Shown here piece by piece: positions 5,329 through 52,746 of a DNA stretch of 57,506 bases (position 1 is the first letter of the stretch; each line of letters begins with the position of its first letter). Under the pieces are notes generated by a model. The model saw nothing but the letters and a program-made list of their open reading frames with translations. It ran no database searches and was not told where the DNA came from. The DNA is from Candidatus Magasanikbacteria bacterium CG10_big_fil_rev_8_21_14_0_10_47_10 (lineage in GTDB: Bacteria; Patescibacteriota; Patescibacteriia; Magasanikbacterales; UBA922), in NCBI GenBank assembly GCA_002773135.1, contig PFCB01000016.1, positions 1 to 57,506 on the forward strand, given 5' to 3'. The position numbers were made by a program, and so were the translations under genes.

Positions 5329-5719
5329 GGGGATGACAGGCTTCGATAGACGGATCCTGTTATCTGTATTTGCGTGTCGAGGGTGGCTTCCCTCGTACTC
5401 CAAAGCCAATCGATACGTGCAAACGTTATCACCCGAGCAAAGAACGCGTTGGCGCAAGCTTTTAGCGTTCCACAACTCGCAGCTGTTGTCGCGTAATTGC
5501 CACAACCATCGCTCTGATCATACTCGATAGTCAGAAACCGGTGTCAACCCAATCGAGCGTAGATGCGTGTGCCGCCTGATCACACCCATTGAACTCCTAT
5601 TCGGGCGCCTCTTGCACATTTTGTCACTTTCCAAAGTGTTAAGAGTACACAAATTGACTACACACGTAGACGGTACAGATAACCCGCGCTAGACCCGAGT
5701 TCAATTCTCGGCATCTCCA
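5329..5719 (+). ncRNA. ssrA: tmRNA; tag ORF 5419-5496 encodes ANVITRAKNALAQAFSVPQLAAVVA*
   Basis: 5' GGGGATG pairs with 3' CATCTCC+A; T arm ccgag-ttcaatt-ctcgg; GCA AAC resume codons; lies directly after smpB. CCA is not encoded. Confidence 0.95.
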
Positions 5720-5841
5720 CGAAAAATGGCGCAGCCATTTTGAGTGTCACGTGAGACCCGCAGGGTCTTTTACGTGACATCGTTACAATATTGACCAACG
5801 GCGCCATCTCGTGGCTCGCCGTGTGTATCAAAGAAGGGGCT

Positions 5842-6162
5842 ATGTATTATATTGTTTATGTACTTCAATCAAAAAAATACCCACACCGCAAGTACATTGG
5901 CTACACGGCAAATTTACAAAAAAGAGTGAAGATACATAATAGCGGGATGGTACACTCCACAAAAAAATGGAAACCTTGGATTCCTATTTATGCAGAGATG
6001 TACCTGGAAAAGCTGGACGCTCTTGGTAGAGAAAGATTTTTGAAGAGCGGATCAGGATGGAAATATATAAAAAAACAATTACGACACTATTTGAAACACC
6101 ATGAGAATCTCACGAAAGAAGCGACCAAAAAAACTATTGATCCCACACTACGCGATCAATAG
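5842..6162 (+). CDS. Small stand-alone GIY-YIG nuclease (UPF0213/YhbQ-like)
   Basis: YIVYVLQS...KYIGYT.NL.KR...HN.G...TK..KPW...Y.E......A..RE..LK motif set. Likely start ATG 5842; the 3' end overlaps infC by 62 nt. Confidence 0.9.
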   Translation: MYYIVYVLQSKKYPHRKYIGYTANLQKRVKIHNSGMVHSTKKWKPWIPIYAEMYLEKLDALGRERFLKSGSGWKYIKKQLRHYLKHHENLTKEATKKTIDPTLRDQ

Positions 6163-6649
6163 CAAAATTAGAACTGAACATGTTCGCGTTATTGACGTTG
6201 ACGGAAAAAATTTGGGTGTCATGTCAACAGCAGATGCCATTGCGCTGGCAAAAGAAAAAGAATTTGATTTGGTTGAAATCAACCCAAAGTCAGACCCACC
6301 TGTCGCGCAGATTACGGATTTTACGCATTTGAAATATCAAAAGGAAAAAGAAGCGCGCAAGCAGAAACAAAATACACGCTTGGGAGAAATCAAAGGAATC
6401 CGGCTATCCGTTCGCATTGGTAAGGGTGACATTGAGACCAGACGAAAACAATCGGAACGATTTCTGGAACGGGGTGACAAAGTCAAGCTGGAAATTATAC
6501 TGCGCGGCGCGGAACGGTTCAAAACCCCACTGGCCTACGAGGTCATCAGAAATTTCTATGCCCTCTTAAACGAAACATTTCCGGTCAAATATGAACAAGA
6601 GGCCACCCGCCAAGGAAACAAAATCACGGCAATTCTAGTAAAGAAATAA
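6101..6649 (+). CDS. infC: Translation initiation factor IF-3
   Basis: INSKIR.EHVRVID.DG.NLGVM, DLVEINPKSDPPV, K.IRLSVRIG.GD, GDKVK motifs. Confidence 0.97.
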   Translation: MRISRKKRPKKLLIPHYAINSKIRTEHVRVIDVDGKNLGVMSTADAIALAKEKEFDLVEINPKSDPPVAQITDFTHLKYQKEKEARKQKQNTRLGEIKGIRLSVRIGKGDIETRRKQSERFLERGDKVKLEIILRGAERFKTPLAYEVIRNFYALLNETFPVKYEQEATRQGNKITAILVKK

Positions 6650-6663
6650 GTGGATAGATAGGC

Positions 6664-6692
6664 TTGACGGATTGATCATTTTGCTATATAAT
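6664..6692 (+). promoter_or_regulatory. Sigma70-type promoter for rpmI-rplT
   Basis: TTGACG (6664-6669), 17 nt spacer, TATAAT (6687-6692). Confidence 0.8.
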
Positions 6693-6759
6693 CATGCAAC
6701 CTTACGACAATGACCTTTTGGTATTAGTGTCGTTTTAGCTGTTTTGAATCTCTACAGGT

Positions 6760-6966
6760 ATGCCAAAAATGAAGACCCACAAAGCAACAGCCAAGCGATT
6801 TGTGATCAAACGATCAAAATCAGGCACAAAGATTATCAAAAGAATGGATGGCCAGGATCATTTTAATTCACGAGAATCCGGAAAAATAAAGCGCAATAAG
6901 CGCTCTGACGTTGTCATGTCCAATGCAAATCGTAAAACCATTGAACGGGCCATGCCAAACAGCTAA
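6760..6966 (+). CDS. rpmI: 50S ribosomal protein L35
   Basis: MPKMKTHKATAKRF; basic, 68 aa; directly upstream of rplT. Confidence 0.95.
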   Translation: MPKMKTHKATAKRFVIKRSKSGTKIIKRMDGQDHFNSRESGKIKRNKRSDVVMSNANRKTIERAMPNS

Positions 6967-6969
6967 CAT

Positions 6970-7314
6970 ATGTCTAGAGTAAAACGGGGTACAACCCATA
7001 CAAAAAAAAGGCGCGCACTGATGAAACGCGTGAAGGGATTCCGAGGAAGACGAGGAAACCTTTTGAAGCTGGCAAAAACAGCAGATATTCGCGCTGGCAT
7101 GCATGCCTACCGCGACAGACGCGTAAAAAAACGCACCTTCCGCCAGCTGTGGCAAGTCCGCATCAATGCAGCTGCCAGAGCAGCCGGTACCAGCTACAGC
7201 AAGCTAATGGGAGCGTTCAAAGAAAAGAATGTCGGTTTGGACAGAAAAGTTTTGTCTGAAATCGCAGACAAATATCCTGCAGTCTTTACAAAACTGGTGG
7301 ACCACACAAAATAA
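6970..7314 (+). CDS. rplT: 50S ribosomal protein L20
   Basis: MSRVKRG, AYRDRR.KKR.FR.LW..RINAAAR, LDRKVLSEIA. Confidence 0.98.
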   Translation: MSRVKRGTTHTKKRRALMKRVKGFRGRRGNLLKLAKTADIRAGMHAYRDRRVKKRTFRQLWQVRINAAARAAGTSYSKLMGAFKEKNVGLDRKVLSEIADKYPAVFTKLVDHTK

Positions 7315-7322
7315 ATTGAAAC

Positions 7323-7411
7323 AAACGGCCTTTACTGTGTTCGGTGCTGAGCGGAGGTACCCCCTCCTTTACCTCTATGCTCGTGCCGAACACCGTGAAG
7401 GTCGTTTTTTT
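7323..7411 (+). ncRNA. Long imperfect hairpin ending in a U-tract (candidate structured RNA or extended terminator)
   Basis: Arms of ~37 nt (aaacggcctttactgtgttcggtgctgagcggaggta / tacctctatgctcgtgccgaacaccgtgaaggtcgttt); four arm differences are G.U pairs on the + strand. Confidence 0.55.
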
Positions 7412-7415
7412 GTTG

Positions 7416-7424
7416 TGCTATAAT
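7416..7424 (+). promoter_or_regulatory. Extended -10 promoter for the HEXXH protein
   Basis: TG-c-TATAAT ending 9 nt before ATG 7434, implying a nearly leaderless mRNA. Confidence 0.55.
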
Positions 7425-7433
7425 GGATGTGCT

Positions 7434-7895
7434 ATGTCTAAGCTGAACTACAACAAAAGCAATCGAATACAAAAAATAAAATTCCGTATCTCAGATCGCG
7501 CTCAGATGCTCACAACACGTCTACTTTGTTCCAATGAAACCAACCTGAGACAAGCACTTTCTACAGATTTGCTTGATGAGCTTTGTGACTTTGCCGAAAT
7601 TGGTATTTGTAATGCAAAAATATCCGACGCAAAGCAATATCATAAAAAAAGAAATGGCCGCGTCAGCTTTAAGCAGTATGGGTATTACAAACCGGGCTCC
7701 AAGTACATTTATATCAATAACAGAACCGCTGTCCGTGGCAGTCTATTGGCCCCCAAAACCTTTGTTGATACATTGCTGCATGAATGGATGCACCACTACG
7801 ACTTTGAAAAGCTGGGGCTCAACTCAATTCATACAGCCGGCTTTTATGCTCGGCTCAAAGATATTAAGGAAAAACTGGGGTATTTTGACGCTTGA
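7434..7895 (+). CDS. SprT-like zinc metalloprotease-domain protein
   Basis: TLLHEWMHHYD (HEXXH) and downstream IHTAGFY motif; likely start MSKLNY. Confidence 0.75.
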   Translation: MSKLNYNKSNRIQKIKFRISDRAQMLTTRLLCSNETNLRQALSTDLLDELCDFAEIGICNAKISDAKQYHKKRNGRVSFKQYGYYKPGSKYIYINNRTAVRGSLLAPKTFVDTLLHEWMHHYDFEKLGLNSIHTAGFYARLKDIKEKLGYFDA

Positions 7896-7920
7896 CAAAC
7901 AGCATTTACCGTAGTATCAT
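7892..7920 (+). promoter_or_regulatory. Sigma70-type promoter for the small basic ORF and tRNA-Asp
   Basis: TTGACA (7892-7897), 17 nt spacer, TATCAT (7915-7920). Confidence 0.75.
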
Positions 7921-8025
7921 GTGGAGGCTACTTTACAAATTGGTTCTTTTTCATAGTCCCACACGTGCATTATGAATGTCGGCTTTCTATGAAATAAGAA
8001 CTTCAAACTATGAACGTATATGGGA

Positions 8026-8166
8026 ATGAGAAAAAAGAACAACCAAAAAGAGGCGCAGCGACGCCTTGTTGCCAAGAAAAAACGCAACAAAAAAAAGATT
8101 AAACGCGCTGCCAAGGCGCCAACAGCTGGACAAACACTGCACAAAACCATGCATAGTACAAAATAA
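8026..8166 (+). CDS. Unannotated 46 aa Lys/Arg-rich peptide MRKKNNQKEAQRRLVAKKKRNKKKIKRAAKAPTAGQTLHKTMHSTK
   Basis: Translated by hand; below the ORF-track cutoff; lies downstream of a consensus promoter. Confidence 0.55.
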   Translation: MRKKNNQKEAQRRLVAKKKRNKKKIKRAAKAPTAGQTLHKTMHSTK

Positions 8167-8186
8167 CAGGTATCCCCTGTTATCCT

Positions 8187-8232
8187 GGACCGGTAGTTCC
8201 CGCCAGAGGCGGAGCCGTCCTTCAGCGGACAA
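8187..8232 (+). repeat. Partial 5' copy of tRNA-Asp with the D-loop replaced by a palindrome
   Basis: ggaccggtagttc is identical to the first 13 nt of the tRNA, followed by ccgcc-aga-ggcgg, agc, then gtcc-ttcagc-ggac. Confidence 0.75.
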
Positions 8233-8258
8233 CAGGTCATTAAGATAGAGAAAAAGGC

Positions 8259-8332
8259 GGACCGGTAGTTCAACTGGTTAGAGCACCGCCCTGTCACGGC
8301 GGAAGTTGCGAGTTCGAGTCTCGTCCGGTCCG
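8259..8332 (+). tRNA. tRNA-Asp(GTC)
   Basis: Acceptor GGACCGG/CCGGTCC; D arm; anticodon arm ccgcc-ctGTCac-ggcgg; T loop ttcgagt; CCA not encoded. Confidence 0.97.
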
Positions 8333-8349
8333 CCTTTTTCTCTAAACGA

Positions 8350-8403
8350 GCCCTGCCTGCCCCGCCAACCGACCGAAGGGAGGTTCGGCAGGGCCCGGTC
8401 CGC
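8350..8403 (+). repeat. Nested palindromes followed by a copy of the tRNA-Asp 3' end
   Basis: cctgcctgcc...aaccgaccgaagggaggtt...cggcagg, then ccggtccgc (the tRNA acceptor 3' strand). Confidence 0.65.
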
Positions 8404-8437
8404 AAATCAAATGACCCCTTTGGGGTCTTTTTGATTT
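8404..8437 (+). terminator. Rho-independent terminator
   Basis: gacccc-ttt-ggggtc followed by ttttt. Confidence 0.7.
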
Positions 8438-8465
8438 ATTAAAGGATGGGGCTTGATGCACAACA

Positions 8466-8494
8466 TTGACAAATCCCCTAAAAACAACTATACT
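8466..8494 (+). promoter_or_regulatory. Sigma70-type promoter for the ABC-F gene
   Basis: TTGACA, 17 nt spacer, TATACT. Confidence 0.8.
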
Positions 8495-8514
8495 ACTGCC
8501 TCCTCATATAGAAT

Positions 8515-9987
8515 ATGTCAGCAGAAAACGTCATCATTCGATTTGACAACGTATCATTTCATTATACTGAAGACAAACCAATTTTGGATTCAGTCAATTT
8601 TTCAGTACGCGAAGATGCAAAAATTACCATCATGGGACAAAACGGTGCCGGAAAAAGTACTATTTTCAAACTGATTTGTGGCGCAGCAGACATTCCTGAA
8701 GTTGAAAAACTCAAACCTGCGGAAGGTCTTATCCACATTCGCAATAACGCAAGCATTGGTATTGCGCTCCAAGTAATGCCAAAACGCTTCTTTGGACTAA
8801 CCATCACAGAGTATTTTGCCACGGCTTTCAGTGAACAGACATACAATTTGGATAAACGTATTGCCGATGTCTTGGCAATTGTTGATCTTTCTATACCCCT
8901 TTCCAAAAGAATAGAAGAAATGTCCGGTGGCCAGCAGGCACGTCTATTGCTCGCGTATGCGCTTATTCAAAAGCCTGATATTCTTCTATTGGACGAACCC
9001 ACGAACAATCTGGATTCAGCCGGAATTGAACATTTAACCGGCTTCCTCATGATGTATGACAAAACGGTTATTGTCATTTCCCATGATGCTGATTTTTTGA
9101 ACGCCTTTACGGAAGGCGTTTTGAATGTCGATTTTCAAACAAAAAAAGTTGAGCAATATGTAGGCAACTACTTTAATGTAGTGGAGCAAATCCAAGCACA
9201 AATAGAACGGGAAGAAAAAAAGAACGCGCAACTGCGCAAAAGCATCCAAGACCGAAAGGACAAAGTCAACTTTTTTGCTCACAAAGGTGGAAAGATGCGA
9301 AAACTGGCGAGCAAGCTGAAAGAAGAAGTATCAGAAGCAGAGGAGGAGATGGTGAACGTGAAACAAGATGATAAAACCATTCGTGATTTTACTATTCCTG
9401 CGCAACCCTGGTCTGATATTCTTGTTCATATAACATCGGTCGGGACTATTCAACATCATGAAATTGTTACAAAGCCGGTTGATATCACACTATGGAAAAA
9501 AGATCGACTGCAAATTGTTGGACCAAATGGCATTGGTAAAAGTACACTTTTAAAAACACTTGCCCTTGAGAAAACAGAGAGTGCCGTTATCAATCCGGCA
9601 ATCAAAGTCGGGTATTATCAGCAGGATTTTTCAGGATTAGATTTTGATAAATCTGTCTATGAATCGTTGGCCGACATGATGGATGTGCCCGACAACCAGA
9701 CAATTTACGCGACAGGCGCTGCATTTTTACTTACAGCAGAGCTGATGAAAAACACGGTTGGCTCTCTATCCGAAGGGCAAAAAGGTCTTCTGTGCTATGC
9801 ACGATTCGTTTTGCAGAAGCCGGGTTTGCTTATTTTGGATGAGCCCACCAACCATATTAACTTTCGGCATCTGCCTGTTATCGCCAAGGCGATAGATAAT
9901 TTTGATGGGGCGATCATAATTGTCTCTCACATGCCGGAATTTATGGAGCATATCACTATTACCCAGACACTCGACCTCGGACGATAG
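8515..9987 (+). CDS. ABC-F family ATPase
   Basis: Two ABC domains (GQNGAGKST/MSGGQ/LLLDEPTNNLD and GPNGIGKST/LSEGQ/LILDEPTNH) joined by a charged linker; no TM segments. Confidence 0.93.
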   Translation: MSAENVIIRFDNVSFHYTEDKPILDSVNFSVREDAKITIMGQNGAGKSTIFKLICGAADIPEVEKLKPAEGLIHIRNNASIGIALQVMPKRFFGLTITEYFATAFSEQTYNLDKRIADVLAIVDLSIPLSKRIEEMSGGQQARLLLAYALIQKPDILLLDEPTNNLDSAGIEHLTGFLMMYDKTVIVISHDADFLNAFTEGVLNVDFQTKKVEQYVGNYFNVVEQIQAQIEREEKKNAQLRKSIQDRKDKVNFFAHKGGKMRKLASKLKEEVSEAEEEMVNVKQDDKTIRDFTIPAQPWSDILVHITSVGTIQHHEIVTKPVDITLWKKDRLQIVGPNGIGKSTLLKTLALEKTESAVINPAIKVGYYQQDFSGLDFDKSVYESLADMMDVPDNQTIYATGAAFLLTAELMKNTVGSLSEGQKGLLCYARFVLQKPGLLILDEPTNHINFRHLPVIAKAIDNFDGAIIIVSHMPEFMEHITITQTLDLGR

Positions 9988-9999
9988 TGTTCCTCTTTC

Positions 10000-10033
10000 A
10001 AAAAAAAGAACCGCCTCAGGCGGTTCTTTTTTT
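10000..10033. terminator. Bidirectional terminator between convergent genes
   Basis: A8-gaaccgcc-tca-ggcggttc followed by a T-tract. Confidence 0.85.
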
Positions 10034-10041
10034 ATTTGGTA

Positions 10042-12480
10042 TCATTCATCATTTATCTCCCCGGTCCGCTGCAATAGCTCTATTATTTCCTCCTGCGCTT
10101 CACTGCGGATATTACCGTCATTTACATCAAACAGCTGCATATGAAGCTCTGTGGTGCCGGCTGTCTTATTATTAAAACATAATTGATTTTCCTCAAAAAA
10201 GAGCGGCGAATTGATTTGTGCATCGAACGCACCTGACGCGGAGTACTTAAAGCTCTGAATATATACATTTTTATCTTCATTCCCCACAAATTCATCGTTA
10301 TCGTACCAGAATTCAACAACGCCCGGGCCCGGTATCGCAGTGTCATATGTTTCATAACGATTTGAAAGGATTGTAATGTCGCCAACATGATTTTTGTTGA
10401 GCAAGACATTGATATGCGGATATCTCCCTTCAACGGCGTCACCGCGAGCGGTAATACGCATCACGCCTGCGCCTGCCACTTTGGTAGAAACTGAGACATT
10501 TGACCACATTCCCAGATACGTCGGTCTTGTAATGTCGAGGGGGACAGAAATCCGATAGAGGTTGTCAGCATCCGGTGGATATTTTATGTCTTTTATATTG
10601 ATCGGATGAATATCTGTGCGGGGAAAACTGCTCAATAAAACGTCCCGTACGAAAGGAATCGTTCCTGTTACTGCGGGATTGTCCCACGCGACAAAGTTTT
10701 TCACAATGCTCGGTACATGTTCAAAACGCTGCACCTTTGCTCTCTTGTCACCCGGCGCAACCTCAAAACAAAACCTATCACCACTATCACCTTCATCCAG
10801 CACAGAGTGGATATACAACTCATTATTTTCTGTTATGAATTGATCATTTTCTTCCAACTTTTCATGATTCCCCGAATAAAATTGCTGGGGTGAATCTTCA
10901 TACGAATCAATATATGTAGGCTCGGTTGGATGCTCATAAAAATCACCAAAATAGTCGCCTTCCATATCGCGTGGGATAGGGAGACCGAGCGCGTGCAAAA
11001 TATTTGGTGCAATGTCTGTATAATCAAAACCCGAAACACGTACTCCTTTACGAATATTAGGGCCAACCCAGACAAAGATACCCAGAGGGCCTGTTGGATC
11101 TGCATAGTGATTGCCCGACTCGATGGATAATTTCAAAAAATCTTTAAATGCTATTTCTCGGTCGCCAATCACAATGATATCGTCTACAATTGATCGTTTT
11201 ATATCATACACAACATCGGCCTCATCTCTCTCGGATTTACCCACCGACACAAACATACTTTGCCCATCCCGCGTCTTCACGCTCTCCAGTGCCGTAACAA
11301 TACGATCTCTCATTGCTTCATACTGCTGCTGTGGGACAATACCGTCCTGGTATTTACCCTGAATATTAATGCAAAGCCGTCTCTGCCAATCAAACGTATT
11401 ATTATTGCATTCAAACGCGACGCTTTTAGCAAAGTCCACTTTACCATTTGGGAGATACTGAAGCAGACCAAGATATGAAAGCAACACATTAAATTTTTCA
11501 ACGCGATAGCCTCCGGCAGGATCAGCAAAATGTCCATGGTCAGACATGACGATAATATTGGTGTTCGGACCTGATCTTTTTATGTATTCCCCGAGCAGTT
11601 TATCCTGCTCAATGTATATTTCTTCAATAAAATTGCCATACTCCTGAACCAAAGTGGGGTCAACATCATTAAATTTTTCCGGCCACAAAAATTTCAAAAA
11701 AAGGTGCTGTGACGCGTCCACAGTACCGGCAATTTGAAACAAAACATCCGGTTTTTCTTTATCAAAAAGCGCAAGACTGATCGGGCTAAACAACCGGGTC
11801 AACAACGCGAACTGGTCGTGTGCGACTTTAAAAAATGCAGCGTCATTTAAGCTTTTTGGCTCGGGAAATGTCACTTCCAAATCCTTCCCCAAGACAGAAA
11901 AGCCCAGCTCCTTCGCAGCGGACAGCATGATATCATTCTTCAGACGATCCGGGCTCACGCCACGATCCACGCTAAACAATGATTGTTCTGTCACGACATA
12001 TCCATTGATTTGTTCCGCTGGCCATGTGGCCCAATAACTGAATACACCCACTTTCAAACCGGCTTCCGACAAAATATTCCACAATGCCTTTACCCTCCGA
12101 TCTTCCGAAGTAATAAGTTGCGTTGTGTAGTCCTCTTCGTTCAACGAGATAAAATTATTCACACCATGCCGCTGCGGCGACACGCCTGTTACCGCAGTAG
12201 TCCATATGGCCGGAGAAATGGTCGGATTGAGCGTTGGCGGTGATGATCGAACACCATTTTTTATCAAATATTGCAAATTGGGCATCTTCCCCTGTTCTAT
12301 CAGCGGGTCAATAACCTGCCACATTGCCGCGTCTATCCCAAGCAAAAGTAATGTTGGCTCGTCTCCGGGCTCAAGCTGCGGTACCGTGCTATCGGTATCC
12401 CAATACAGCCAAGCGGCGACAGCACCGACGCTGATGGACACAAGAAGGACAAATGTAATGATGATTTTTTTCCAAGGCAT
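10042..12480 (-). CDS. Membrane-anchored alkaline-phosphatase-superfamily (nucleotide pyrophosphatase/phosphodiesterase) protein with C-terminal CBM60-like domain
   Basis: N-terminal TM; LLLLGIDAA, PTISPAIWTT..TG..P..HG, MSDHG, D.TDIAPNIL..LGLPIP.DMEG; C-terminal F.YDND...EDKNVYIQS. Confidence 0.8.
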   Translation of the reverse strand: MPWKKIIITFVLLVSISVGAVAAWLYWDTDSTVPQLEPGDEPTLLLLGIDAAMWQVIDPLIEQGKMPNLQYLIKNGVRSSPPTLNPTISPAIWTTAVTGVSPQRHGVNNFISLNEEDYTTQLITSEDRRVKALWNILSEAGLKVGVFSYWATWPAEQINGYVVTEQSLFSVDRGVSPDRLKNDIMLSAAKELGFSVLGKDLEVTFPEPKSLNDAAFFKVAHDQFALLTRLFSPISLALFDKEKPDVLFQIAGTVDASQHLFLKFLWPEKFNDVDPTLVQEYGNFIEEIYIEQDKLLGEYIKRSGPNTNIIVMSDHGHFADPAGGYRVEKFNVLLSYLGLLQYLPNGKVDFAKSVAFECNNNTFDWQRRLCINIQGKYQDGIVPQQQYEAMRDRIVTALESVKTRDGQSMFVSVGKSERDEADVVYDIKRSIVDDIIVIGDREIAFKDFLKLSIESGNHYADPTGPLGIFVWVGPNIRKGVRVSGFDYTDIAPNILHALGLPIPRDMEGDYFGDFYEHPTEPTYIDSYEDSPQQFYSGNHEKLEENDQFITENNELYIHSVLDEGDSGDRFCFEVAPGDKRAKVQRFEHVPSIVKNFVAWDNPAVTGTIPFVRDVLLSSFPRTDIHPINIKDIKYPPDADNLYRISVPLDITRPTYLGMWSNVSVSTKVAGAGVMRITARGDAVEGRYPHINVLLNKNHVGDITILSNRYETYDTAIPGPGVVEFWYDNDEFVGNEDKNVYIQSFKYSASGAFDAQINSPLFFEENQLCFNNKTAGTTELHMQLFDVNDGNIRSEAQEEIIELLQRTGEINDE

Positions 12481-12485
12481 ATGTG

Positions 12486-14162: not shown

Positions 14163-14170
14163 ACGGTAAA

Positions 14171-15358
14171 CTACAGGCTAGTATACAATACCATGGCCAA
14201 AACGTACATTGCTTGCCCGGGCAATTGAACCTCGGTATTACGCCAGACATCAGATCGCTGCCAGTCAAATCCCTTTTCGTCAGGGCCGTTTATGAGTGCG
14301 CCGGATAAATCGCACGCACTAAAAAAATGACAGGGATGATACACATCGTCGTACTCAGTAAAATTTACCGCATATTCATTTTCCCCATGCAAATACGCGT
14401 ACAGGCGACTGGACAAGTCAGAAAATTCATTACTGCCAAATCGCTTTTTATACAATCGTTCCAGAGCAATGGTTCCCGCGATATCATAATTTCCGCCAAT
14501 ATAGTCAAAGACCTTTGTGTCACTATCAAATCGATCACCCACTTTCGTAAGCACACGCGCAATGGTTCGCTCTTCTTCTTGCTCAATATTAAGGAGCGCG
14601 GCAAACCGAATGCCCCAAAGGTCCGGCAGCGATGTAGCATCAACATCTTTTATGTCAGCCAAGTCAAGCAGCCCCTCGTATTCTCCCTCGCGCAACGAAA
14701 GTGGCCCCTCTTCACAGCAATTCTCTGAAACGGTCATATTTTCAAGCGTGCGCGCCGTGTCGCGCATCCGCCGGCTGAGTCCTTCATTGCCGAGATTAGC
14801 ATACACAAGACTCAACATGGCATAAATATCTCGCCCTTCGCCATCCCGAAAAAAATACGTCTGCTGCGGATACACGCGTTCATTCCATGATGGTGGAAGG
14901 TTGACTCCATGAACATCTTGATCACGAAATTGTTTATACCCCGCGGCAATCATTTGCTCCACGCACCCAAGCTGCTGATCAATTACTTTTTTTAGATCTT
15001 TTTTCACTTCTTCTCCCTCTGCATATTGATAGGCCATTGAGAGATATACCAATGCTTGCGTATTTCTTTGAATAAACACGATATAGTCCCCCGCGTCGTA
15101 CCAGCAGCCCTTCACAGGGTCATTGTGTTGACTTTGATTCAGTACAAATACGCGCAATGCCGACCCAATGTCCGATGAAAAAGATATTGACCGATTGGCG
15201 GTGCGGTATCCTTGCGTACTATAAAAAAACAGTACCCAGTACAGGAGAACACCAATACATACCAGCAGGATACTGCCGATGGCAATACTAAATTTTTTTC
15301 TTTTCAAGAAATTCGCTAAGTTCTTTGGCATATTCAGGAACACTGAGACCATAGTCAA
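14171..15358 (-). CDS. Glycoside hydrolase family 9 (endoglucanase-like), N-terminal TM
   Basis: GCWYDAGDY (GH9 DAGD), YHPCH, GALINGPD and NTEV matching the C-terminal catalytic Glu region. Confidence 0.82.
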   Translation of the reverse strand: MTMVSVFLNMPKNLANFLKRKKFSIAIGSILLVCIGVLLYWVLFFYSTQGYRTANRSISFSSDIGSALRVFVLNQSQHNDPVKGCWYDAGDYIVFIQRNTQALVYLSMAYQYAEGEEVKKDLKKVIDQQLGCVEQMIAAGYKQFRDQDVHGVNLPPSWNERVYPQQTYFFRDGEGRDIYAMLSLVYANLGNEGLSRRMRDTARTLENMTVSENCCEEGPLSLREGEYEGLLDLADIKDVDATSLPDLWGIRFAALLNIEQEEERTIARVLTKVGDRFDSDTKVFDYIGGNYDIAGTIALERLYKKRFGSNEFSDLSSRLYAYLHGENEYAVNFTEYDDVYHPCHFFSACDLSGALINGPDEKGFDWQRSDVWRNTEVQLPGQAMYVLAMVLYTSL

Positions 15359-16172: not shown

Positions 16173-16179
16173 ATTAACG

Positions 16180-18542: not shown

Positions 18543-18558
18543 ACAAGCATTTGGATAC

Positions 18559-20362: not shown

Positions 20363-20365
20363 TAC

Positions 20366-21682: not shown

Positions 21683-21719
21683 AGGTTACAACGTGACACT
21701 GAATTTCCTCCCTTTCGGA

Positions 21720-29150: not shown

Positions 29151-29191
29151 GTCTAGAACCTAAACACACGTCTAGACTCTCGTGTCGTTTG
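29151..29191. repeat. Dispersed intergenic repeat, copy 3
   Basis: Reverse complement matches 3800-3838 at 37/39 positions. Confidence 0.85.
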
Positions 29192-29280
29192 GAGCTTCTT
29201 GATTCTGTATCGACACAGTATACCACGCAAGAGCGCAAATGGAAAAATAACACAAAAAGCCCGATCGCCGGTACTCCCCA

Positions 29281-35774: not shown

Positions 35775-35807
35775 AAGCGTTATTAGTATATCACAAACTG
35801 CTAAAGA

Positions 35808-46967: not shown

Positions 46968-49083
46968 TGACCGGACTTATCTCCGGCTGACGCAATATAT
47001 TCAGACAGGTGTCCGTATCTGGCTGAAGTACTATATTATTAAATTGTGTTACGCATGATGTATCACGCACCGGATTCTCTTCCACACCCGTACAATGTTC
47101 GTAATTCCCATTGTCATCACGCGTGCAGTCGGACAACTCTTCTGCAGGACCACGCCCGGGATACAGACAATTCTGCTGCGCATCTTTAACCTGACTTGCA
47201 ATAGATGGAAAATAGTATAAATCAAACCCGTTTGGGCCAAATTCTCTGTGCGATACAGTAACAACCGTTTGTCCGGCATCATTTTCACCCGAATCCAAGG
47301 CAAACCATATATCGTCCATGCCATTCAAGTTTGCCGGATGCTCGGTCACCCGCACATTCCTATGCAATGTGTGATACCACATGCGTTCACTAAACGTGAT
47401 AGAGAGCGGCGCATCGCCGGGCACGCGGCCTTGATCAATATCAGGAGTCACGCGGCTGATAAATGGAGGCGTTCTATCGATGGTATTGCGAATACCAAAG
47501 GTCCACCACATATTGTCTTCAGCTCGTTCCTGATCGCCAATTGCTTTTATATCAATATTCCCCGCGTTATCGCGCAATCCAACCGGCGGTTTGCCATCGG
47601 CTTCACCGGCGTCATGCTCTACAATGTCACCACTGCGGCCATTCAATGCATTTCCTGATGCATCCATCACACCGGAAAATGGAATTGCCTCAAAAGATCG
47701 ACCATCGGGGTTGATCACGTCTGCCGTACGAATCAACACTTCATAATCCTCTGCGCAGGCCTCGTCTGCGTCCGCGCATGATGGTGTTGGAAGGCAGTAC
47801 ATAACATCGCCGCAACTATTTTGGCCGCAAGCGATGTCAGAAACAAATTCAACTGTTTGATACCGATTCGTCAGCTTCCATTCACCGGTAACGGCACGAT
47901 CACCAAAAATAATATGATTAAATTCTGTGTTTGGTCCTGAAAGACCCTGCACAACCGTTGGGTCCATTGGTTCACTGAACGAAACTTGAATAATACTGTT
48001 CCGTGGTGCTATTTGGTTCCTCCCCCTGCCGGGATAGACATTCGTTACAAAGGGCGGGACATCATCAATAGTGGTGTCCGTTTGAAACGTCCATTCATAA
48101 TGATTTGATCGTGATCCTTCAAAAGCTCCTGTACCATCCTTTCTTAGAATGATAGGTTTGAGATCAACGATATATTGCATATTTTGTTCACCGCTACCAA
48201 GCAATTCAAGCGGCTTAAACGTAAACGTGTACGCATTTCTAGCGGCTCCGTCTTCGTATATGGTGAGCGCGGACGCCTGAATTGGCTGTCCGGCCGGCGC
48301 ATCTCCTTGCGCGGCAGCCACAATAGTGACAGCATCCGTATCCAGCTGATCGCAATGAATCGCACGATTAAACACTTCGCCATCGGGGACAAAGCAATCA
48401 CCATAAAACGGACTGCTCTCCGGGCCGCATAGATTGGTGGCCTGCCCATTGTCGCCAACACAGGTATTATTGCTGTTTACGATAATGCTCGCAGGATCGA
48501 TTGGCTCGGAAAACGTAACAAGAATATTTGTGTTTCGTTTTACGCCTTGCTGACCACGTTCCGGATAATGATCTTGAACAATACCGGAACCCAACGATCC
48601 GCTGCCGGCAAAACTTTCAAAACCCGGGCCACGCCCGGCGCCCGCACCGCCAGCACCCGCGCCAACACCGGTTGCTTCTGACAACCGCGAGATAAAAAAC
48701 TGCGTAATGGCAAATGAGGACATGATAATAAACAATCCAATGGCGCCATTGATAAGAATCTTTTTTGCCTGTGCTATTTTATCTTCACTGCCACCGGATG
48801 TCATGTAGACAAACCCTCCATATATGACAATAACCACGGCAATGATGCCAAGCAATCCCAAAAAGGCGCGAATAATCCCCGCAATAGTTAACCGAATATC
48901 CTGGGAACCCAAGGCAAGACCTGATTGATCCACCGTCCCAACTCCAAAGGTATCGCCGACATTGGCCTGCGCGCTGACCATGCTTGGCCGGACAAAAATA
49001 AAAATCGCCGCAATCAAAAAAAGTGCAACGATTAACAGTCCACCGTGTACATGGCGTTTGTGTTGTCGAATCCATGGAAGCAT
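46948..49083 (-). CDS. Pilin-domain plus Ig-like (Big_5-type) surface protein
   Basis: Same pilin-like N-terminal module as the giant gene; I.VTFSEPIDP.S and QVSFSEPMDP Ig-like motifs. Likely start MLPWIR at 49083. Confidence 0.85.
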   Translation of the reverse strand: MLPWIRQHKRHVHGGLLIVALFLIAAIFIFVRPSMVSAQANVGDTFGVGTVDQSGLALGSQDIRLTIAGIIRAFLGLLGIIAVVIVIYGGFVYMTSGGSEDKIAQAKKILINGAIGLFIIMSSFAITQFFISRLSEATGVGAGAGGAGAGRGPGFESFAGSGSLGSGIVQDHYPERGQQGVKRNTNILVTFSEPIDPASIIVNSNNTCVGDNGQATNLCGPESSPFYGDCFVPDGEVFNRAIHCDQLDTDAVTIVAAAQGDAPAGQPIQASALTIYEDGAARNAYTFTFKPLELLGSGEQNMQYIVDLKPIILRKDGTGAFEGSRSNHYEWTFQTDTTIDDVPPFVTNVYPGRGRNQIAPRNSIIQVSFSEPMDPTVVQGLSGPNTEFNHIIFGDRAVTGEWKLTNRYQTVEFVSDIACGQNSCGDVMYCLPTPSCADADEACAEDYEVLIRTADVINPDGRSFEAIPFSGVMDASGNALNGRSGDIVEHDAGEADGKPPVGLRDNAGNIDIKAIGDQERAEDNMWWTFGIRNTIDRTPPFISRVTPDIDQGRVPGDAPLSITFSERMWYHTLHRNVRVTEHPANLNGMDDIWFALDSGENDAGQTVVTVSHREFGPNGFDLYYFPSIASQVKDAQQNCLYPGRGPAEELSDCTRDDNGNYEHCTGVEENPVRDTSCVTQFNNIVLQPDTDTCLNILRQPEISPVSDQPVQ

Positions 49084-49188
49084 GGGACCGTGGATGACAT
49101 TGATAAATTGGTACCTTGTGATTCCTGACTGGCAAAACCACCGCCGCCAATCACTATTCACAACCTACCAATTGGTAGACGCGGGAAC

Positions 49189-49635
49189 CTACCCGGTTTC
49201 ATTTATTATTTGTTCCAGCATGGCCTTCACTCTGCTGCCATCCGCTTGCCCATTCACCCGGGCCATGGCGGCCCCCATGAGCTGACCAAAGGACATACCG
49301 TCCGCCGCGGTTGCCATTGTTTCCTGCACAATCTTTCGCAACGCGTCGTCGTTCATCTGTGCCGGCAAAAACGTATTCAAAATACCGATTTCAAATCTGT
49401 TTTTTTCAGCCAAGTCCTCCCGGTTTGCGTTCTCAAAATCCACAAGTGCGTCTTTCAATTGTTTTACCTGCGTACGAATGACCGACAGAACATCGTCATC
49501 TGTCAACTCTCCTCCCTTTTCAATTTCTTTATTTTTAGCCTCTGAACACAAGATCCGCAGCGTGTCTAGAGCTGCGGTATCTCGGTTCTTTAAGGCTGAA
49601 TCACGTGCTGTATATATCTGCTTCAGCAGTGACAT
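49189..49635 (-). CDS. GatB/YqeY domain protein
   Basis: A.KNRD...LDTLR.L.SE.KN.EI, E..ILNTFLP.QM, G..MG..M.RV.G.ADG. Confidence 0.92.
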   Translation of the reverse strand: MSLLKQIYTARDSALKNRDTAALDTLRILCSEAKNKEIEKGGELTDDDVLSVIRTQVKQLKDALVDFENANREDLAEKNRFEIGILNTFLPAQMNDDALRKIVQETMATAADGMSFGQLMGAAMARVNGQADGSRVKAMLEQIINETG

Positions 49636-49646
49636 AGAAAATAATG

Positions 49647-49892
49647 TTATCTTCGTCCTCTTTTTGGGATTTCTTCTTCCGGCAACCTGCCGATCTTACG
49701 CAAATATGCAGTCTTGGACTGCACCTTCGCGTAGGCGACAGCTTGCTTGCGGGAAACATTTTTACTTTTGTCTTTGGAAAAATGCTGTACTTTCCGCACT
49801 TGCAAGACTTTGCCAGAACGCATCCACTGCTGTTTCACGCGGCGAAAGAACGCCTCAAAGGATTCGTTTTTCTTTCGTTTCACTTCTGACAC
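49647..49892 (-). CDS. rpsU: 30S ribosomal protein bS21
   Basis: V.RKKNESFE.FFRR.K; GTG start with GGAGGTG Shine-Dalgarno; conserved rpsU-yqeY adjacency. Confidence 0.85.
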   Translation of the reverse strand: MSEVKRKKNESFEAFFRRVKQQWMRSGKVLQVRKVQHFSKDKSKNVSRKQAVAYAKVQSKTAYLRKIGRLPEEEIPKRGRR

Positions 49893-49934
49893 AACTATTC
49901 ACCTCCCCGGTGATATTAGATAAATATTACCATA

Positions 49935-49963
49935 ATAATACACACTTTTTTTTATTTTGTCAA
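49935..49963 (-). promoter_or_regulatory. Sigma70-type promoter for rpsU
   Basis: Minus strand TTGACA, 17 nt, TATTAT. Confidence 0.75.
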
Positions 49964-49973
49964 ACAATTCTCT

Positions 49974-51389
49974 TTATTTCATCAGCTTGCGCAGATGGTG
50001 TTCAATCTTCTTTTGATCAATGATTTCTTGAATTCCGGAGTCCATATCTCTGATAATAACAGTACCATCCTGAACCTCTTTTTGCCCCAAAATAATGGAA
50101 TGCGTCGATTTCATTTTATCTGCCAATTCCAGCTGTGCTTTGAGAGAACCTTTTGCCAAGCTGGAGCCAAGCTGAATCCCGGACTTGCGAAGAGACTCAA
50201 TAAGGGCAAGCGTTCGTCTGCGCGCCTGCTCTCCCAGTTGCGCAAAGAAAAATTGTCTTTCAATTCCTGCGGGATGTCGGGAGCCTGCAACGTCAGAACC
50301 TTCTTGCTCTTCTTTTTCTTTTTTGTTCAATGCAAGCATTACCCGTTCAAGACCGATAGCAAAGCCGCTGGCAGGGGTGGCTTCGCGAGCACCAATTTCT
50401 TCAAGTAACCCATCATATCGTCCGCCGCCGCCCAAGGCGCTCTGCGACTGTTCCTTTCCGCCGTCGACGAATAATTCAAAGACGGTGTCGGTATAATAGT
50501 CCAAACCTCTGACAAGAGTTGGTGTAAGCACATATGGAATCCGCAATTCATCGAGATATTCCAAAACGCTCATAAAAAAATCTTTTGACGCCGCGCTCAA
50601 CCACTCAATAATCTGTGGCGCGTCTTCAAGTGCTTCCTGACAACCGAGTTCCTTACAATCAAGGACACGAAGCGGATTTTTGCTAATTCTCTTTTTGCAA
50701 TTTTCACACAAATAGGATCGTTTACTTCGCAAATATCCCACAAGTTCCACAATATAATTTTGTCGATCTTCAAACGTGCCAATGCTATTGATGTGTATTT
50801 CCGCTTGAAGACCAAGATCTCGTAAAAAATTATACGCCATGCTGATCAACTCGGCGTCTGATACCGGATTTCTCTCACCAATCACCTCGCAGTTGAACTG
50901 GTGGAACTGACGATATCGTCCGGATTGAGGTCTGTCATGGCGAAACAAAGGACCCACTGTCCAAACTTTGACAGGTTGTGGAAGACTGAGCATGCCATGA
51001 GAAATATATGAACGCGCGATGCCGGCGGTAAACTCGGGACGCAGTGCTATTTTTGTGCCCTCGTTATCTTCAAAAACGTACATTTCTTTTTCAACCACAT
51101 CAGTACCGCGCCCCAGGGATTTGACGAAAAGCTGTGCCTGTTCAACAATAGGTGTTTCCACATAGCCATAGCAATAGCTTTCCGCGATGCTTCGTGCGGC
51201 ATCAAACATGCGCAGCCACTGGCCTCCTTGCGAGGGCACAATATCTTTCATGCCACGCACATTTTGATATGATTTTTGTGTTTTTTTTTCTTGCTTCGCA
51301 ACAGCAGGACTCAACGCCTCCTTTTTGTCCGCAACTTTTTTCTTTGTTGCTGGTTTTTTTGCCGGCGCGGATTTCTTTTTTGGAGACAT
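49974..51389 (-). CDS. hisS: Histidine--tRNA ligase
   Basis: VRGMKDI, KEMY.F.D, LRPEFTAG.AR, RPQ.GRYRQF.Q, LVRGLDYY, GGGRYDGL, GFAIGLER. Confidence 0.98.
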   Translation of the reverse strand: MSPKKKSAPAKKPATKKKVADKKEALSPAVAKQEKKTQKSYQNVRGMKDIVPSQGGQWLRMFDAARSIAESYCYGYVETPIVEQAQLFVKSLGRGTDVVEKEMYVFEDNEGTKIALRPEFTAGIARSYISHGMLSLPQPVKVWTVGPLFRHDRPQSGRYRQFHQFNCEVIGERNPVSDAELISMAYNFLRDLGLQAEIHINSIGTFEDRQNYIVELVGYLRSKRSYLCENCKKRISKNPLRVLDCKELGCQEALEDAPQIIEWLSAASKDFFMSVLEYLDELRIPYVLTPTLVRGLDYYTDTVFELFVDGGKEQSQSALGGGGRYDGLLEEIGAREATPASGFAIGLERVMLALNKKEKEEQEGSDVAGSRHPAGIERQFFFAQLGEQARRRTLALIESLRKSGIQLGSSLAKGSLKAQLELADKMKSTHSIILGQKEVQDGTVIIRDMDSGIQEIIDQKKIEHHLRKLMK

Positions 51390-51452
51390 AGGGGTAAAAA
51401 ATCAAGAGTGAAAAATGTAGGACGGTACGTCTAACGACAAACGAATAAAACA

Positions 51453-52064
51453 CTATAAATTATAATCCGGTTTTTCAAACAACTGAACTCGTGTAACAGG
51501 CCAACCGCGTACCCAGGTGCGCCCTACAATAGAATCTCGCGCAATCGGACCAAAGCGCCGTGAATCAAAACTTGCGTCTCTGTTATCGCCGAGTACAAAA
51601 TACTGATCGCTTCCCAGCGTGTAGGAAATATCTCCCGGCGTTTCCTCAGTCAGATACTCCTCGTGGACAACCACACCTTGCAGGTTATCACTATTGTAAA
51701 TAATAACTTTATTGTCTTGTACTTTTACACGCTCACCCGGCAAACCTATGATTCTTTTTAAATAAAAATCTTTTTGCGAAACAGGCGGACGAAAGACAAT
51801 CACTTCCCCGCGCGCAGGTTCGCGGAATCGATATGTTAATTCATCGATAATAAGATAATCACTTGGCTCATATGTCGGTTCCATTGACTCCCCCTTTACA
51901 TAAAAGGGCTTAAACAAAAAATAACGGACAAGGCCAATCGTAATGGCCGCAAGGACAACAACCTTTATGAGCTCAAGAAAAAAAAGGCCGATAATACCAA
52001 AGACACTCCTGCCAACTTCTTGCTCTGTAATATCGTTTTGTTCGGACATAGCTTTTAGGCTCAA
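51453..52064 (-). CDS. lepB: Signal peptidase I
   Basis: V.G.SMEPT, YLKRIIGLPGE, YFVLGDNR..S.DSR.FG. Confidence 0.97.
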   Translation of the reverse strand: MSLKAMSEQNDITEQEVGRSVFGIIGLFFLELIKVVVLAAITIGLVRYFLFKPFYVKGESMEPTYEPSDYLIIDELTYRFREPARGEVIVFRPPVSQKDFYLKRIIGLPGERVKVQDNKVIIYNSDNLQGVVVHEEYLTEETPGDISYTLGSDQYFVLGDNRDASFDSRRFGPIARDSIVGRTWVRGWPVTRVQLFEKPDYNL

Positions 52065-52245
52065 TAGAGTGAAAAATAGGGCAATTTAGGTTCCCATTAT
52101 ACCCCCTTTCGGACAAAAATGCAAATATGAAAAAAAACAGCGAAATACTGCTTTTTTGGACATACTACAGCTCCTTTTCCCGTGTGGTAAACAGAGTCAT
52201 GGAATCAAAAGTGGGACCTTCTTCTTACCAGATATACCCCCCCTG

Positions 52246-52325
52246 CATAGTGGGCGATCCAAGAATCCCTGCCTGCCGGCAGGCAGGGAACTTGGGACAT
52301 TCCCGCATCACGTGCGGGACGCTCT
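52246..52325 (-). pseudogene. tRNA-Ile-derived 3' fragment with a 20 bp palindrome in the T loop and a substituted anticodon arm
   Basis: catagtgggcgatccaagaatc is identical to 52500-52521; cctgcctgccggcaggcagg (52268-52287) is inserted between TTC and GATT; the anticodon arm is replaced by tcccgc-N7-gcggga. Confidence 0.8.
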
Positions 52326-52504
52326 GTCCATAGAGGCTATATAGTAGTCTATTAACTGAGGCGGCAGCTTCCTTTTCTTTTCTTTTGTTTTATTTTTTAT
52401 TCGAATGATCTTGCGACAACAATAGAATCAAACCACCAACATCCTATCAAAACCATGGCCATTTTTTTCGCTTGCAAGCAGATAGAGAATCCCCCTCTTC
52501 ATAG

Positions 52505-52578
52505 TGGGCGATCCAAGAATCGAACTTGGGACCTCTACATTATCAGTGTAGCGCTCTAACCATCTGAGCTAATCGCCC
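52505..52578 (-). tRNA. tRNA-Ile(GAT)
   Basis: GGGCGAT acceptor; ctaca-ctGATaa-tgtag; ccaag-ttcgatt-cttgg; CCA not encoded. Confidence 0.97.
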
Positions 52579-52601
52579 GCTTTACTTATGTTGTCGTCGA
52601 T

Positions 52602-52632
52602 GGGACCTTCCCGCATCAAGCGCGGGACGCTC
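52602..52632 (-). repeat. tRNA-like anticodon-arm repeat, copy 2
   Basis: Minus strand gagcg-tcccgc-gcttgat-gcggga-aggtccc; the flanks equal tRNA-Ile GAGCG...AGGTCCC. Confidence 0.75.
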
Positions 52633-52641
52633 ATCGCGCCG

Positions 52642-52715
52642 TGGACTTAAGTGGATTCGAACCACTGACCTCTACAATGTCAATGTAGCGCTCTAACCAA
52701 CTGAGCTATAAGTCC
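52642..52715 (-). tRNA. tRNA-Val(GAC)
   Basis: GGACTTA acceptor; ctaca-ttGACat-tgtag; agtgg-ttcgaat-ccact; CCA not encoded. Confidence 0.97.
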
Positions 52716-52718
52716 ATT

Positions 52719-52746
52719 GACCTTCCCGCAATTTCGCGGGACGCTC
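52719..52746 (-). repeat. tRNA-like anticodon-arm repeat, copy 3
   Basis: Minus strand gagcg-tcccgc-gaaatt-gcggga-aggtc, ending 3 nt before the 5' end of tRNA-Val. Confidence 0.75.

Follow-up and report, generated by a model that had tools for sequence, protein, structure and literature searches.

Introduction

REP/REPIN repeats are thought to be spread by one dedicated gene per genome, and partial duplications of tRNA genes were reportedly traced by Williams in 2002 to integrase-borne genomic islands and prophages. Fragments of tRNA genes have also been ascribed to integrative elements or CRISPR (PMC9897764). Two groups of GIY-YIG nucleases come closest to the subject of this paper: the Ssn proteins (cd10448), of the same size as the nuclease described below, cut single-stranded DNA a few bases from their own hairpin repeats, and SsnA is killed by mutation of Y6, Y17 and E64 (Chenal et al. 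2025, PMC11893778), while SegB, encoded in the tRNA cluster of T4 and T6, is known for homing and for recombination-dependent tandem amplification of the tRNA-segB unit (PMC2330249, PMC13096335). Hairpin-associated minimal GIY-YIG nucleases and homing nucleases at tRNA genes are, that is, already known kinds. This paper deals with a 57,506-nt contig (PFCB01000016.1, hereafter the window) of Candidatus Magasanikbacteria bacterium CG10_big_fil_rev_8_21_14_0_10_47_10, in which tRNA genes and the transfer-messenger RNA (tmRNA) gene are accompanied by broken tRNA copies, GC-rich hairpins and a small GIY-YIG nuclease gene. Text searches of the literature found no description of the cassette or the palindrome discussed here, or of GIY-YIG genes with tRNA genes in these bacteria.

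The window is contig C22 of a draft genome of 1.04 Mb, which consists of 36 contigs and has 44 tRNA genes. Partial tRNA copies and GC-rich hairpins at tRNA loci were confirmed to be real and genome-wide. We incline to the reading that a recombinase-free selfish cassette living in tRNA-type genes is present in the window in one intact and two decayed copies, and we hold this reading with moderate confidence and its enzymology with low confidence. In its full form, the cassette would consist of a broken tRNA copy with hairpin-bearing loops, an 80-100-aa single-domain GIY-YIG gene and an intact working tRNA, and it would often end with a second broken tRNA copy. At the tmRNA gene (ssrA) the nuclease gene and the hairpin modules would still be there, and at tRNA-Asp and tRNA-Val/Ile the nuclease gene would have been lost, leaving a working tRNA between hairpins and the pieces of an older copy. 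The partial tRNA copies are more readily understood as remains of a cassette that carried in or duplicated a complete tRNA than as the result of mini-elements striking tRNAs.

The window gene is like the Ssn genes in encoding a stand-alone GIY-YIG domain of ~90-100 aa with the same catalytic Tyr/Tyr/Glu (PMC11893778), and like the Ssn/NTS pairs in being flanked by short GC-rich hairpin repeats which are also scattered genome-wide in numbers varying greatly between related genomes. However, in the tree described below its protein falls in another clade than the Ssn-like proteins of the same genomes, it is the Ssn-like genes and not the window gene that adjoin ATTCCCGCGAAAGCGGGAAT, the hairpins of the window gene are off the SRM pattern, and the canonical SRM copies (14) do not lie near tRNAs, which are unmentioned in the Ssn paper (PMC11893778). 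With SegB the system shares a GIY-YIG gene among tRNA genes and a presence/absence polymorphism between relatives, and with Seg genes the insertion between conserved genes in some relatives and the absence from that site in other relatives; cutting in the tRNA region, leading to preferential inheritance and to tandem amplification of tRNA plus nuclease, is a SegB feature that is here proposed only. Seg proteins, however, exceed 200 aa and have separate DNA-binding domains, whereas the tRNA-linked proteins are a bare catalytic domain; the host is a cellular chromosome instead of a phage, and descriptions of Seg loci do not include broken tRNA copies plugged with hairpins.

The palindromes resemble REP/REPIN sequences in being short, GC-rich, present in many copies and presumed to take a single-stranded hairpin form, but, unlike REP/RAYT systems, they also abound in some genomes without a Y1 transposase, consist of a single perfect 20-mer without target duplication and are linked to broken tRNAs. 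The missing target-site duplication also sets them apart from miniature inverted-repeat transposable elements. As in the tRNA duplications left by integrases, an intact tRNA and a partial copy mark the ends of inserted DNA and tmRNA genes are used too; here, however, an integrase is lacking, copies of the 5' end occur besides those of the 3' end, hairpins stand in the loops of the copies, and the inserts amount to tens to hundreds of bases or to one small nuclease gene.

Broken tRNA Copies across the Genome

Each tRNA gene was aligned, with gaps allowed, to its own 260-nt flanks and the scores were compared with those of shuffled controls. Self-copies with loop inserts were found beside at least 11 of the 44 tRNA genes (Arg-tct, Glu-ttc, Glu-ctc, Leu-cag, Ser-gct, Gln-ttg, Asp, Ile-gat, Ile-tat, Gly-tcc and Lys-ctt), and BLAST adds self-copies at Leu-gag (contigs C4 and C25) and Asn. 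The copies are interrupted at recurrent points, namely after base 11-12 in the D loop, after bases 22-24 and in the middle of the T loop, between TTC and GA. The inserts fall into a few families: the palindrome CCTGCCTGCCGGCAGGCAGG (called PAL below); a 41-nt composite, CCCCGCACAAACTCCCTTCGGTCGTTTTGCGGGG plus CAGGCAG, which recurs in reverse complement as the element behind tRNA-Asp; CCGCC..GGCGG hairpins; and TCCCG..CGGGA hairpins. While tRNA genes with 250-nt flanks make up 2.2% of the genome, 12 of its ~19 elements of the CCTGCCTGCC family lie in or beside tRNA-derived sequence (binomial p ~7e-16). The enrichment of palindromes at tRNAs that had been expected from the sequence-only reading is therefore present in the source genome, but the palindrome is not specific to tRNAs in other phyla, where 71 of 82 sampled copies of PAL lie more than 400 nt from a tRNA and 11 lie within 400 nt (tRNA calls were made within loci of at most 8 kb).

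A full cassette is found on contig C4, where bases 1-23 of Leu-gag, PAL, bases 24-34, a nuclease open reading frame (ORF) and the same fragment again follow one another, and contig C25 opens with the end of the Leu-gag nuclease ORF followed by an intact Leu-gag gene. On contig C7, the outer copy of Leu(cag) has the acceptor pair C3:G70 where the inner gene has T3:A70. This difference is compensatory, so the inner and outer sequences are different alleles, which is the expectation if the working tRNA arrived with the cassette.

Some further tRNA loci of the genome are recorded here as observations in their own right. At C23:8420-8650, a tRNA-linked GIY-YIG gene is separated from tRNA-Gly(gcc) by six tandem copies of a 33-nt repeat, gtaaggcaggttcacctggcgaagcccgtggat, which share the open frame of the adjoining nuclease; this Met-GIY-Gly(gcc) layout recurs in the related genome G008, where the 20-bp palindrome stands 3' of the Gly gene. 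Two 3-kb gene-carrying inserts without an integrase (C20:14772-17814 and C26:61914-65041) each sit between a tRNA (Glu-ctc and Asn) and a copy of its 3' end, the cargo being a staphylococcal-nuclease-like gene with a secreted protein in one and a 962-aa ORF in the other; the Glu 3' copy has a palindrome variant in its T loop. At C9:6643-6716, ARAGORN calls a tRNA-Phe with the anticodon AAA, just 5' of which lies a tRNA-like fragment; it found no Phe(GAA) gene in the draft, and the call may be a miscall or an unusual gene.

The tRNA-Asp and tRNA-Val/Ile Loci of the Window

The working tRNA-Asp(GTC) gene (8259-8334, + strand; called by ARAGORN and Rfam) is preceded by a broken 5' copy of itself (8187-8230, + strand). 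The first 13 bases of the tRNA are copied exactly at 8187-8199, the chance of such a 13-mer being ~2.5e-4, and are abutted at the D-loop position by the hairpin CCGCCAGAGGCGG (8200-8212), after which a small hairpin GTCCTTCAGCGGAC (8217-8230) completes the copy; in gapped alignment the self-copy scores 29 against a shuffle maximum of 18. The working gene itself stands inside a perfect 20-bp inverted repeat (8246-8265 and 8325-8344), which adds 13 bp to the acceptor stem. Two relatives of other genera (L282 of G033 and L283 of G015) also have extended stems on the flanks of tRNA-Asp, with sequences that differ, and at these stems pairing seems to be kept rather than sequence. Downstream follows a composite hairpin element of 45 nt, GCCCTGCCTGCC..GACCGAAGGGAG..GGCAGGGC, beginning with CCTGCCTGCC (8350-8394, + strand), which is the reverse complement of the D-loop insert that the broken Lys(ctt) and Ile(tat) copies carry on contigs C28 and C33. 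After it come a 9-nt copy of the 3' end of tRNA-Asp (8395-8403), weak alone (p ~0.07), and a native-looking terminator (~8413-8432). The whole Asp region folds with z = -5.8 and its outer acceptor-like stem is closed.

On the opposite strand lie the working tRNA-Val(GAC) (52641-52715, - strand) and tRNA-Ile(GAT) (52504-52578, - strand), both called by ARAGORN and Rfam. A broken 3' copy of tRNA-Ile (52250-52326, - strand; fold z = -4.55) is composed of the D-stem remnant AGAGCG, a hairpin, and a split T arm with the acceptor. The T arm and 3' acceptor are copied over 29 nt, at a distance of 205 nt downstream of tRNA-Ile, the T loop of this copy being split exactly between GTTC and GATTC by CCTGCCTGCCGGCAGGCAGG at 52268-52287, and the hairpin TCCCGCACGTGATGCGGGA (TCCCGC-N7-GCGGGA, 52301-52319) stands in for the anticodon arm; the alignment score is 50 against a null maximum of 21. 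The two tRNAs are further provided with leader modules of 27 nt each and of the form GAGCG-TCCCGC(N6/7)GCGGGA-AGGTC, one between Val and Ile (GAGCG-TCCCGCGCTTGATGCGGGA-AGGTC, 52604-52632, - strand) and one upstream of Val (GAGCG-TCCCGCGAAATTGCGGGA-AGGTC, 52719-52747, - strand; fold z = -3.1). No self-copy of tRNA-Val was found at the Val locus. The claim that all three tRNA genes stand beside hairpin-bearing copies of themselves is therefore slightly overstated: it is correct for Asp and Ile, but Val has leader modules only. The decamer CCTGCCTGCC, said to be common to both loci, is indeed found at 8352 and 52268.

A separate observation concerns the orientation of the Val-Ile pair (window 52200-53100), which is inverted with respect to the neighbouring conserved gene when compared with loci L168 and L169 of G002 and G008; the arrangement suggests a local rearrangement.

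Empty and Filled Sites in Related Genera

The comparisons covered 60 genomes of the same family and order, none of them of the same genus. A plain promoter-tRNA-terminator unit is found at tRNA-Asp in ~20 of 29 related genera, in one of them with the same downstream ABC-F gene, and the Val-Ile tandem is plain in all 12 genera that retain it, both leader modules being absent from the Val-Ile spacer and from upstream of Val in these 12. Because these orthologous loci are empty, the extra sequences of the window are additions and not conserved parts of the locus. The ssrA-infC locus, described below, is likewise empty in at least eight genera. The comparison of empty and filled sites, which had been proposed as a check, gives no support to the idea that the structures are tRNA decoys, since they are missing from the orthologous loci of most relatives.

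In 4 of 29 relatives, tRNA-Asp is directly preceded by a small GIY-YIG gene. These four loci and twelve loci of the tRNA-linked nuclease clade were scanned for their layout, with results for 15 of the 16. Ten of the 15 have a 5' piece of the same tRNA at 246-327 nt upstream of the intact gene and immediately ahead of the nuclease ORF, its D or anticodon loop being interrupted by one or two GC hairpins; in the remaining locus, L156, which gave no scan result, the same layout was read by eye as a tandem array. The three Asp loci L017, L023 and L026 have the GIY-YIG gene between an Asp fragment and the intact tRNA, and the fragment breaks between bases 12 and 13 in L023 and L026, exactly where the window Asp fragment breaks, and at about bases 9 and 10 in L017. 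Broken 3' copies with hairpins often come after the intact tRNA in the cassette loci of relatives. Since the same broken-copy layout encloses an 80-100-aa GIY-YIG gene in related genera, the Asp and Ile loci of the window are read as nuclease-less remnants, and the suggested link between the palindromes and small GIY-YIG genes is borne out at the level of layout.

The tmRNA Locus and the GIY-YIG Clades

The putative intact cassette of the window is anchored in ssrA (5329-5722, + strand; Rfam RF00023, 118.8 bits), for which ARAGORN made no call in the window. Hairpin modules (5723-5815, + strand; fold z = -5.4) separate it from the nuclease gene and comprise AAAATGGCGCAGCCATTTT (5723-5741, + strand), GTCACGTGAG..TTTTACGTGAC (5746-5778, + strand) and CGCCATCTCGTGGC (5802-5815, + strand). 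Five other genera have modules of the same order behind the tmRNA gene, the last two hairpins being present there in 1-3 repeats, and the first, AAAATGGCGCAGCCATTTT, is also found 3' of tRNA-Ser(gct) on contig C14. The single-domain GIY-YIG gene follows (5842-6162, + strand; 106 aa; PF01541 E = 2e-11). The sequence-only reading was right about this ORF behind the tmRNA gene, but not about the similarity of the hairpins, because all three belong to sequence families other than the shared palindrome.

PF01541 is the sole clear domain of the protein, besides a weak T5orf172 match. With roughly the length of the catalytic domain, the protein has no extra DNA-binding domain that Pfam or NCBIfam could find, and the NCBIfam scan of the small nucleases gave no family and only weak, below-cut-off matches to a group I intron endonuclease model. 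Its closest solved structures are SLX1 and UPF0213 BH0048. The residues Y6, Y18, G20, R28, H32, E64 and K68 are invariant, and the catalytic residues are intact. The C-terminal tail of the ORF (6102-6162) overlaps, in another frame, the likely start of infC (MRISRKKRPKK..). The order ssrA-GIY-infC is found in six genera (the window genome and G001, G008, G010, G020 and G028), and ssrA is directly followed by infC, within a few bases, in at least eight other genera, which are the empty sites.

The source genome has nine small GIY-YIG genes besides UvrC. A tree was made of 59 small GIY-YIG proteins encoded in the source genome or in related ones, 12 of the loci having been chosen by their pattern of hidden Markov model (HMM) matches. 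One clade is linked to tRNA and tmRNA genes: 22 of its 26 members lie within 150 nt of such a gene, and of the four exceptions three stand at the end of a contig. In the second group, composed of Ssn-like and UPF0213-like proteins, only 1 of 33 is adjacent to such a gene, and that one on the opposite strand. The split between the two has a branch support of 98/93, and none of 500 label shuffles does as well; the association of clade with tRNA adjacency has a Fisher p of 3e-11, or of 2e-6 without the 12 loci picked by HMM match pattern. Adjacency to tRNA or tmRNA is thus a property of one GIY-YIG clade. The window gene belongs to a tight tmRNA-linked subclade (support 100/98), which always has the same hairpin modules 5' of the gene. 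The proposal that the window's own protein is the inserter of the palindromes is weakened here, as this subclade keeps one position in six genera and carries other hairpins instead of the shared palindrome; what stands is the membership of its gene in the tRNA-linked clade.

The Ssn-like proteins have a REKQxK...NPxW tail, and several of their genes lie beside ATTCCCGCGAAAGCGGGAAT. The window protein is separated (98/93) from 12 proteins with this tail, some of them beside canonical NTS repeats, and is 36% identical to the Ssn-like paralogue of its own genome, in which Ssn-like genes are found at C2:30695-31012 and C16:2956-3240. Moreover, the genome has 14 near-perfect copies of TGTCATTCCCGCGAAAGCGGGAATCCAG, almost the Neisseria NTS, on contigs C1, C2, C7, C12, C29 and C35, and none of the 14 is near a tRNA. 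The SRM pattern (HGTCWY..) has 15 matches in the genome, of which 14 are TGTCAT(T/C)CCCGCGAA(A/T)GCGGG(A/G)ATC(C/T)AG; in the whole genome, no match comes within 4.9 kb of any small GIY-YIG gene, nor is one found close to the loci of the window. Two hairpin-nuclease systems coexist in the source genome, namely the published Ssn/SRM kind and the tRNA-linked kind, and the NTS-like repeats with the two Ssn-like genes extend the Ssn/SRM pairing to the Candidate Phyla Radiation group. The TCCCGC hairpins of the window were considered as SRM repeats and rejected, because the published SRM pattern does not match them despite a similar core.

The 20-bp Palindrome

Exact PAL (CCTGCCTGCCGGCAGGCAGG) was found in more than 120 contigs, where ~0.5 would be expected by chance in 596 Gb. 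They belong to Patescibacteria, Bacteroidota, Omnitrophota, Planctomycetota, several proteobacterial groups and others. Among the 60 relatives, the number of copies with at most 2 mismatches is 0 to 36 per genome. Filled and empty sites in T loops, in D arms and in one NTS-like repeat differ by an exact 20-bp addition, and no target-site duplication was seen in these comparisons. The last case is on contig C30, where an NTS-like repeat is interrupted as GTCATTCCCGCG-PAL-AAAGCGGGAATGAC, the 14 other copies being uninterrupted. The description of the palindromes as small inserted elements therefore holds, both in tRNA loops and in 1 of 15 copies of the NTS-like repeat.

PAL flanks members of the tRNA-linked clade on contig C4 and in loci L156, L157, L158 and L207. 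The identical 20-mer is also found inside ORFs and in unrelated repeats, and no target consensus flanks it. It was considered that PAL might always stand in the loop of a larger hairpin; a flanking stem of at least 6 bp was found in 12% of the 82 copies from other phyla against 1.8% of controls, which is a tendency and no rule. With a common one-base variant, CCTGCCTGCCGGTAGGCAGG, a G-T wobble hairpin survives on just one of the two strands, a hint that the working form may be single-stranded. PAL is a widely shared module, and its movement by the nuclease is a conjecture.

Proposed Mechanism and Competing Explanations

The cassette may propagate as follows. The nuclease would cut at or next to a hairpin that forms when a heavily transcribed tRNA locus becomes single-stranded, and host recombination would mend the break, with the short, universally conserved tRNA sequence as homology arms. 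Repair would copy the nuclease gene and the intact tRNA into the locus, or would lead to a tandem duplication, and the old gene would be reduced to fragments. A place between the tRNA promoter and the tRNA would give the nuclease gene expression and would make imprecise loss costly. The palindromes may be the recognition hairpins of the nuclease, or independent 20-bp insertions that survive only in dispensable sequence such as broken copies. A wider proposal is offered tentatively and is, on balance, doubtful: the bare GIY-YIG clade and the GC-rich hairpins would form a recombinase-free mobile system colonising tRNA and tmRNA genes across phyla, which recognises its hairpin in single-stranded DNA, uses tRNA homology arms, brings its own replacement tRNA and can thereby enter any genome, the same enzyme or a relative dispersing CCTGCCTGCCGGCAGGCAGG into dispensable hairpin loops.

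Several observations weigh against the reading of the window as one intact and two decayed cassettes. The Asp and Ile loci of the window are without a nuclease gene and are linked to the cassette by homology of layout only, and the tRNA origin of the Val/Ile leader modules is argued from 5 + 5 flanking bases, so these may not be tRNA-derived. The nuclease gene that is present occupies one fixed position in six genera, which fits vertical inheritance as well as it fits homing. The excess of GC hairpins near the tRNA-linked clade over other small GIY-YIG loci is weak (p = 0.09), because Ssn-like genes have hairpins of their own. Co-occurrence with small GIY-YIG genes, a claim of the sequence-only reading, finds agreement in the number of PAL copies, which correlates with the number of GIY-YIG genes over the 60 relatives (rho 0.45, p 3.5e-4, uncorrected for phylogeny), but not in G032, a 99% complete genome with 21 PAL copies and no nuclease of the tRNA-linked clade. 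In this genome, 13 of the 15 copies examined (L237-L251) lie within one ~90-nt repeat, ..TTTTACTC-[palindrome]-ATTCTCGCnnTGGCTCCGAGG-hairpin, and no Y1 transposase gene was found.

Integrative elements classically leave a partial 3' copy of a tRNA behind (PMC9897764), so the structures could be att-site scars of tyrosine integrases whose elements were later mostly deleted, with the hairpins as unrelated later insertions. The two 3-kb inserts at Glu-ctc and Asn, which carry genes and are bounded by the tRNA and a 3'-end copy, would suit this explanation, as would the position of the only PF00589 gene of the genome (contig C1) directly upstream of the nested tRNA-Arg(tct). That gene, however, looks from its sequence like a housekeeping Xer, and the window has no tyrosine recombinase gene (serine recombinases were not searched for). 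Many of the fragments are upstream 5' copies, which an integrase crossover at the 3' part does not produce; they lie only 0-205 nt from the gene, and in relatives it is a GIY-YIG gene, and no integrase, that stands between fragment and tRNA. We regard att-site scars as very unlikely. The repeats might instead be REP-like and spread by a Y1 transposase of the RAYT or IS200 type, the GIY-YIG link reflecting a shared liking for tRNA loci. In favour of this are the standing of REP/RAYT as the established model of repeats of this kind, the one Y1_Tnp gene of the genome (C8:1100-1759) with a CCTGCCTGCC half-site 26 nt from its 3' end, and the several Y1 genes of some palindrome-rich relatives (seven in G007, four in G036). 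But palindrome-rich genomes without any Y1 gene also exist (G032 with 21 copies, G008 with 26, G029 with 13), the Y1 gene has no full palindromes on its flanks, and partial tRNA copies are left unexplained, so that spread by Y1 is improbable.

It is similarly unlikely that the hairpin-bearing tRNA-like pieces are functional parts of transcripts, such as processing or stability signals, or tRNA mimics acting as decoys, which selection has kept. Such a role would agree with their place inside tRNA transcription units, with their folding far better than shuffles (z = -5.8 for the Asp region), with the one-stranded wobble hairpin of CCTGCCTGCCGGTAGGCAGG, pointing to a single-stranded working form, and with the extended stems of differing sequence at tRNA-Asp in three genera. 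On the other hand, the pieces are missing from the orthologous loci of most related genera, their copy number is patchy (0-36 per genome), neither fragments nor hairpins match an Rfam family even at permissive thresholds, and the identical 20-mer occurs in ORFs and unrelated repeats as well. Assembly artefacts of a metagenome-assembled genome are an extremely improbable source of the duplications. The draft has 36 contigs and two of them (C4 and C25) break exactly in such a repeat, but dozens of independent assemblies, isolates and near-complete genomes among them, show the same layouts, and the copies differ from the intact genes by specific insertions instead of collapsed or chimeric joins; the artefact explanation, named beforehand as one that could overturn the palindrome proposal, is thus argued against.

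If the cassette reading is true, about a quarter of the tRNA genes in a minimal 1-Mb genome are marked by a selfish element which has neither integrase nor transposase and needs only an 80-100-aa nuclease and the recombination of the cell. It would explain why small genes annotated as "GIY-YIG nuclease family" frequently have tRNA genes as neighbours, and it would be a source of tRNA gene turnover and of tRNA-like fragments that confuse annotation. In addition, a second hairpin-linked clade of minimal nucleases would stand beside the Ssn enzymes, which are of interest as single-strand DNA tools. The exact 20-bp palindrome common to distant phyla is a concrete handle, as one oligonucleotide and one small protein make the idea testable.

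Additional Observations

The single Y1_Tnp gene of the genome (C8:1100-1759, - strand) is RAYT-like and contains a ~40-nt perfect in-frame palindrome, ccggagaaggttcccttctctcagagaagggaaccttctccgg; the half-site CCTGCCTGCC lies 26 nt past its stop codon. In the window, a 40-nt repeat, CAAAACGACACTAGAGTCTAGA..TTTAGGTTCTAG, occurs at 3798-3838, 5256-5296 and, inverted, at 29152-29193, with copies 80-95% identical to one another. One of these copies stops ~30 nt 5' of the tmRNA gene, and the repeat may be a promoter or operator motif.

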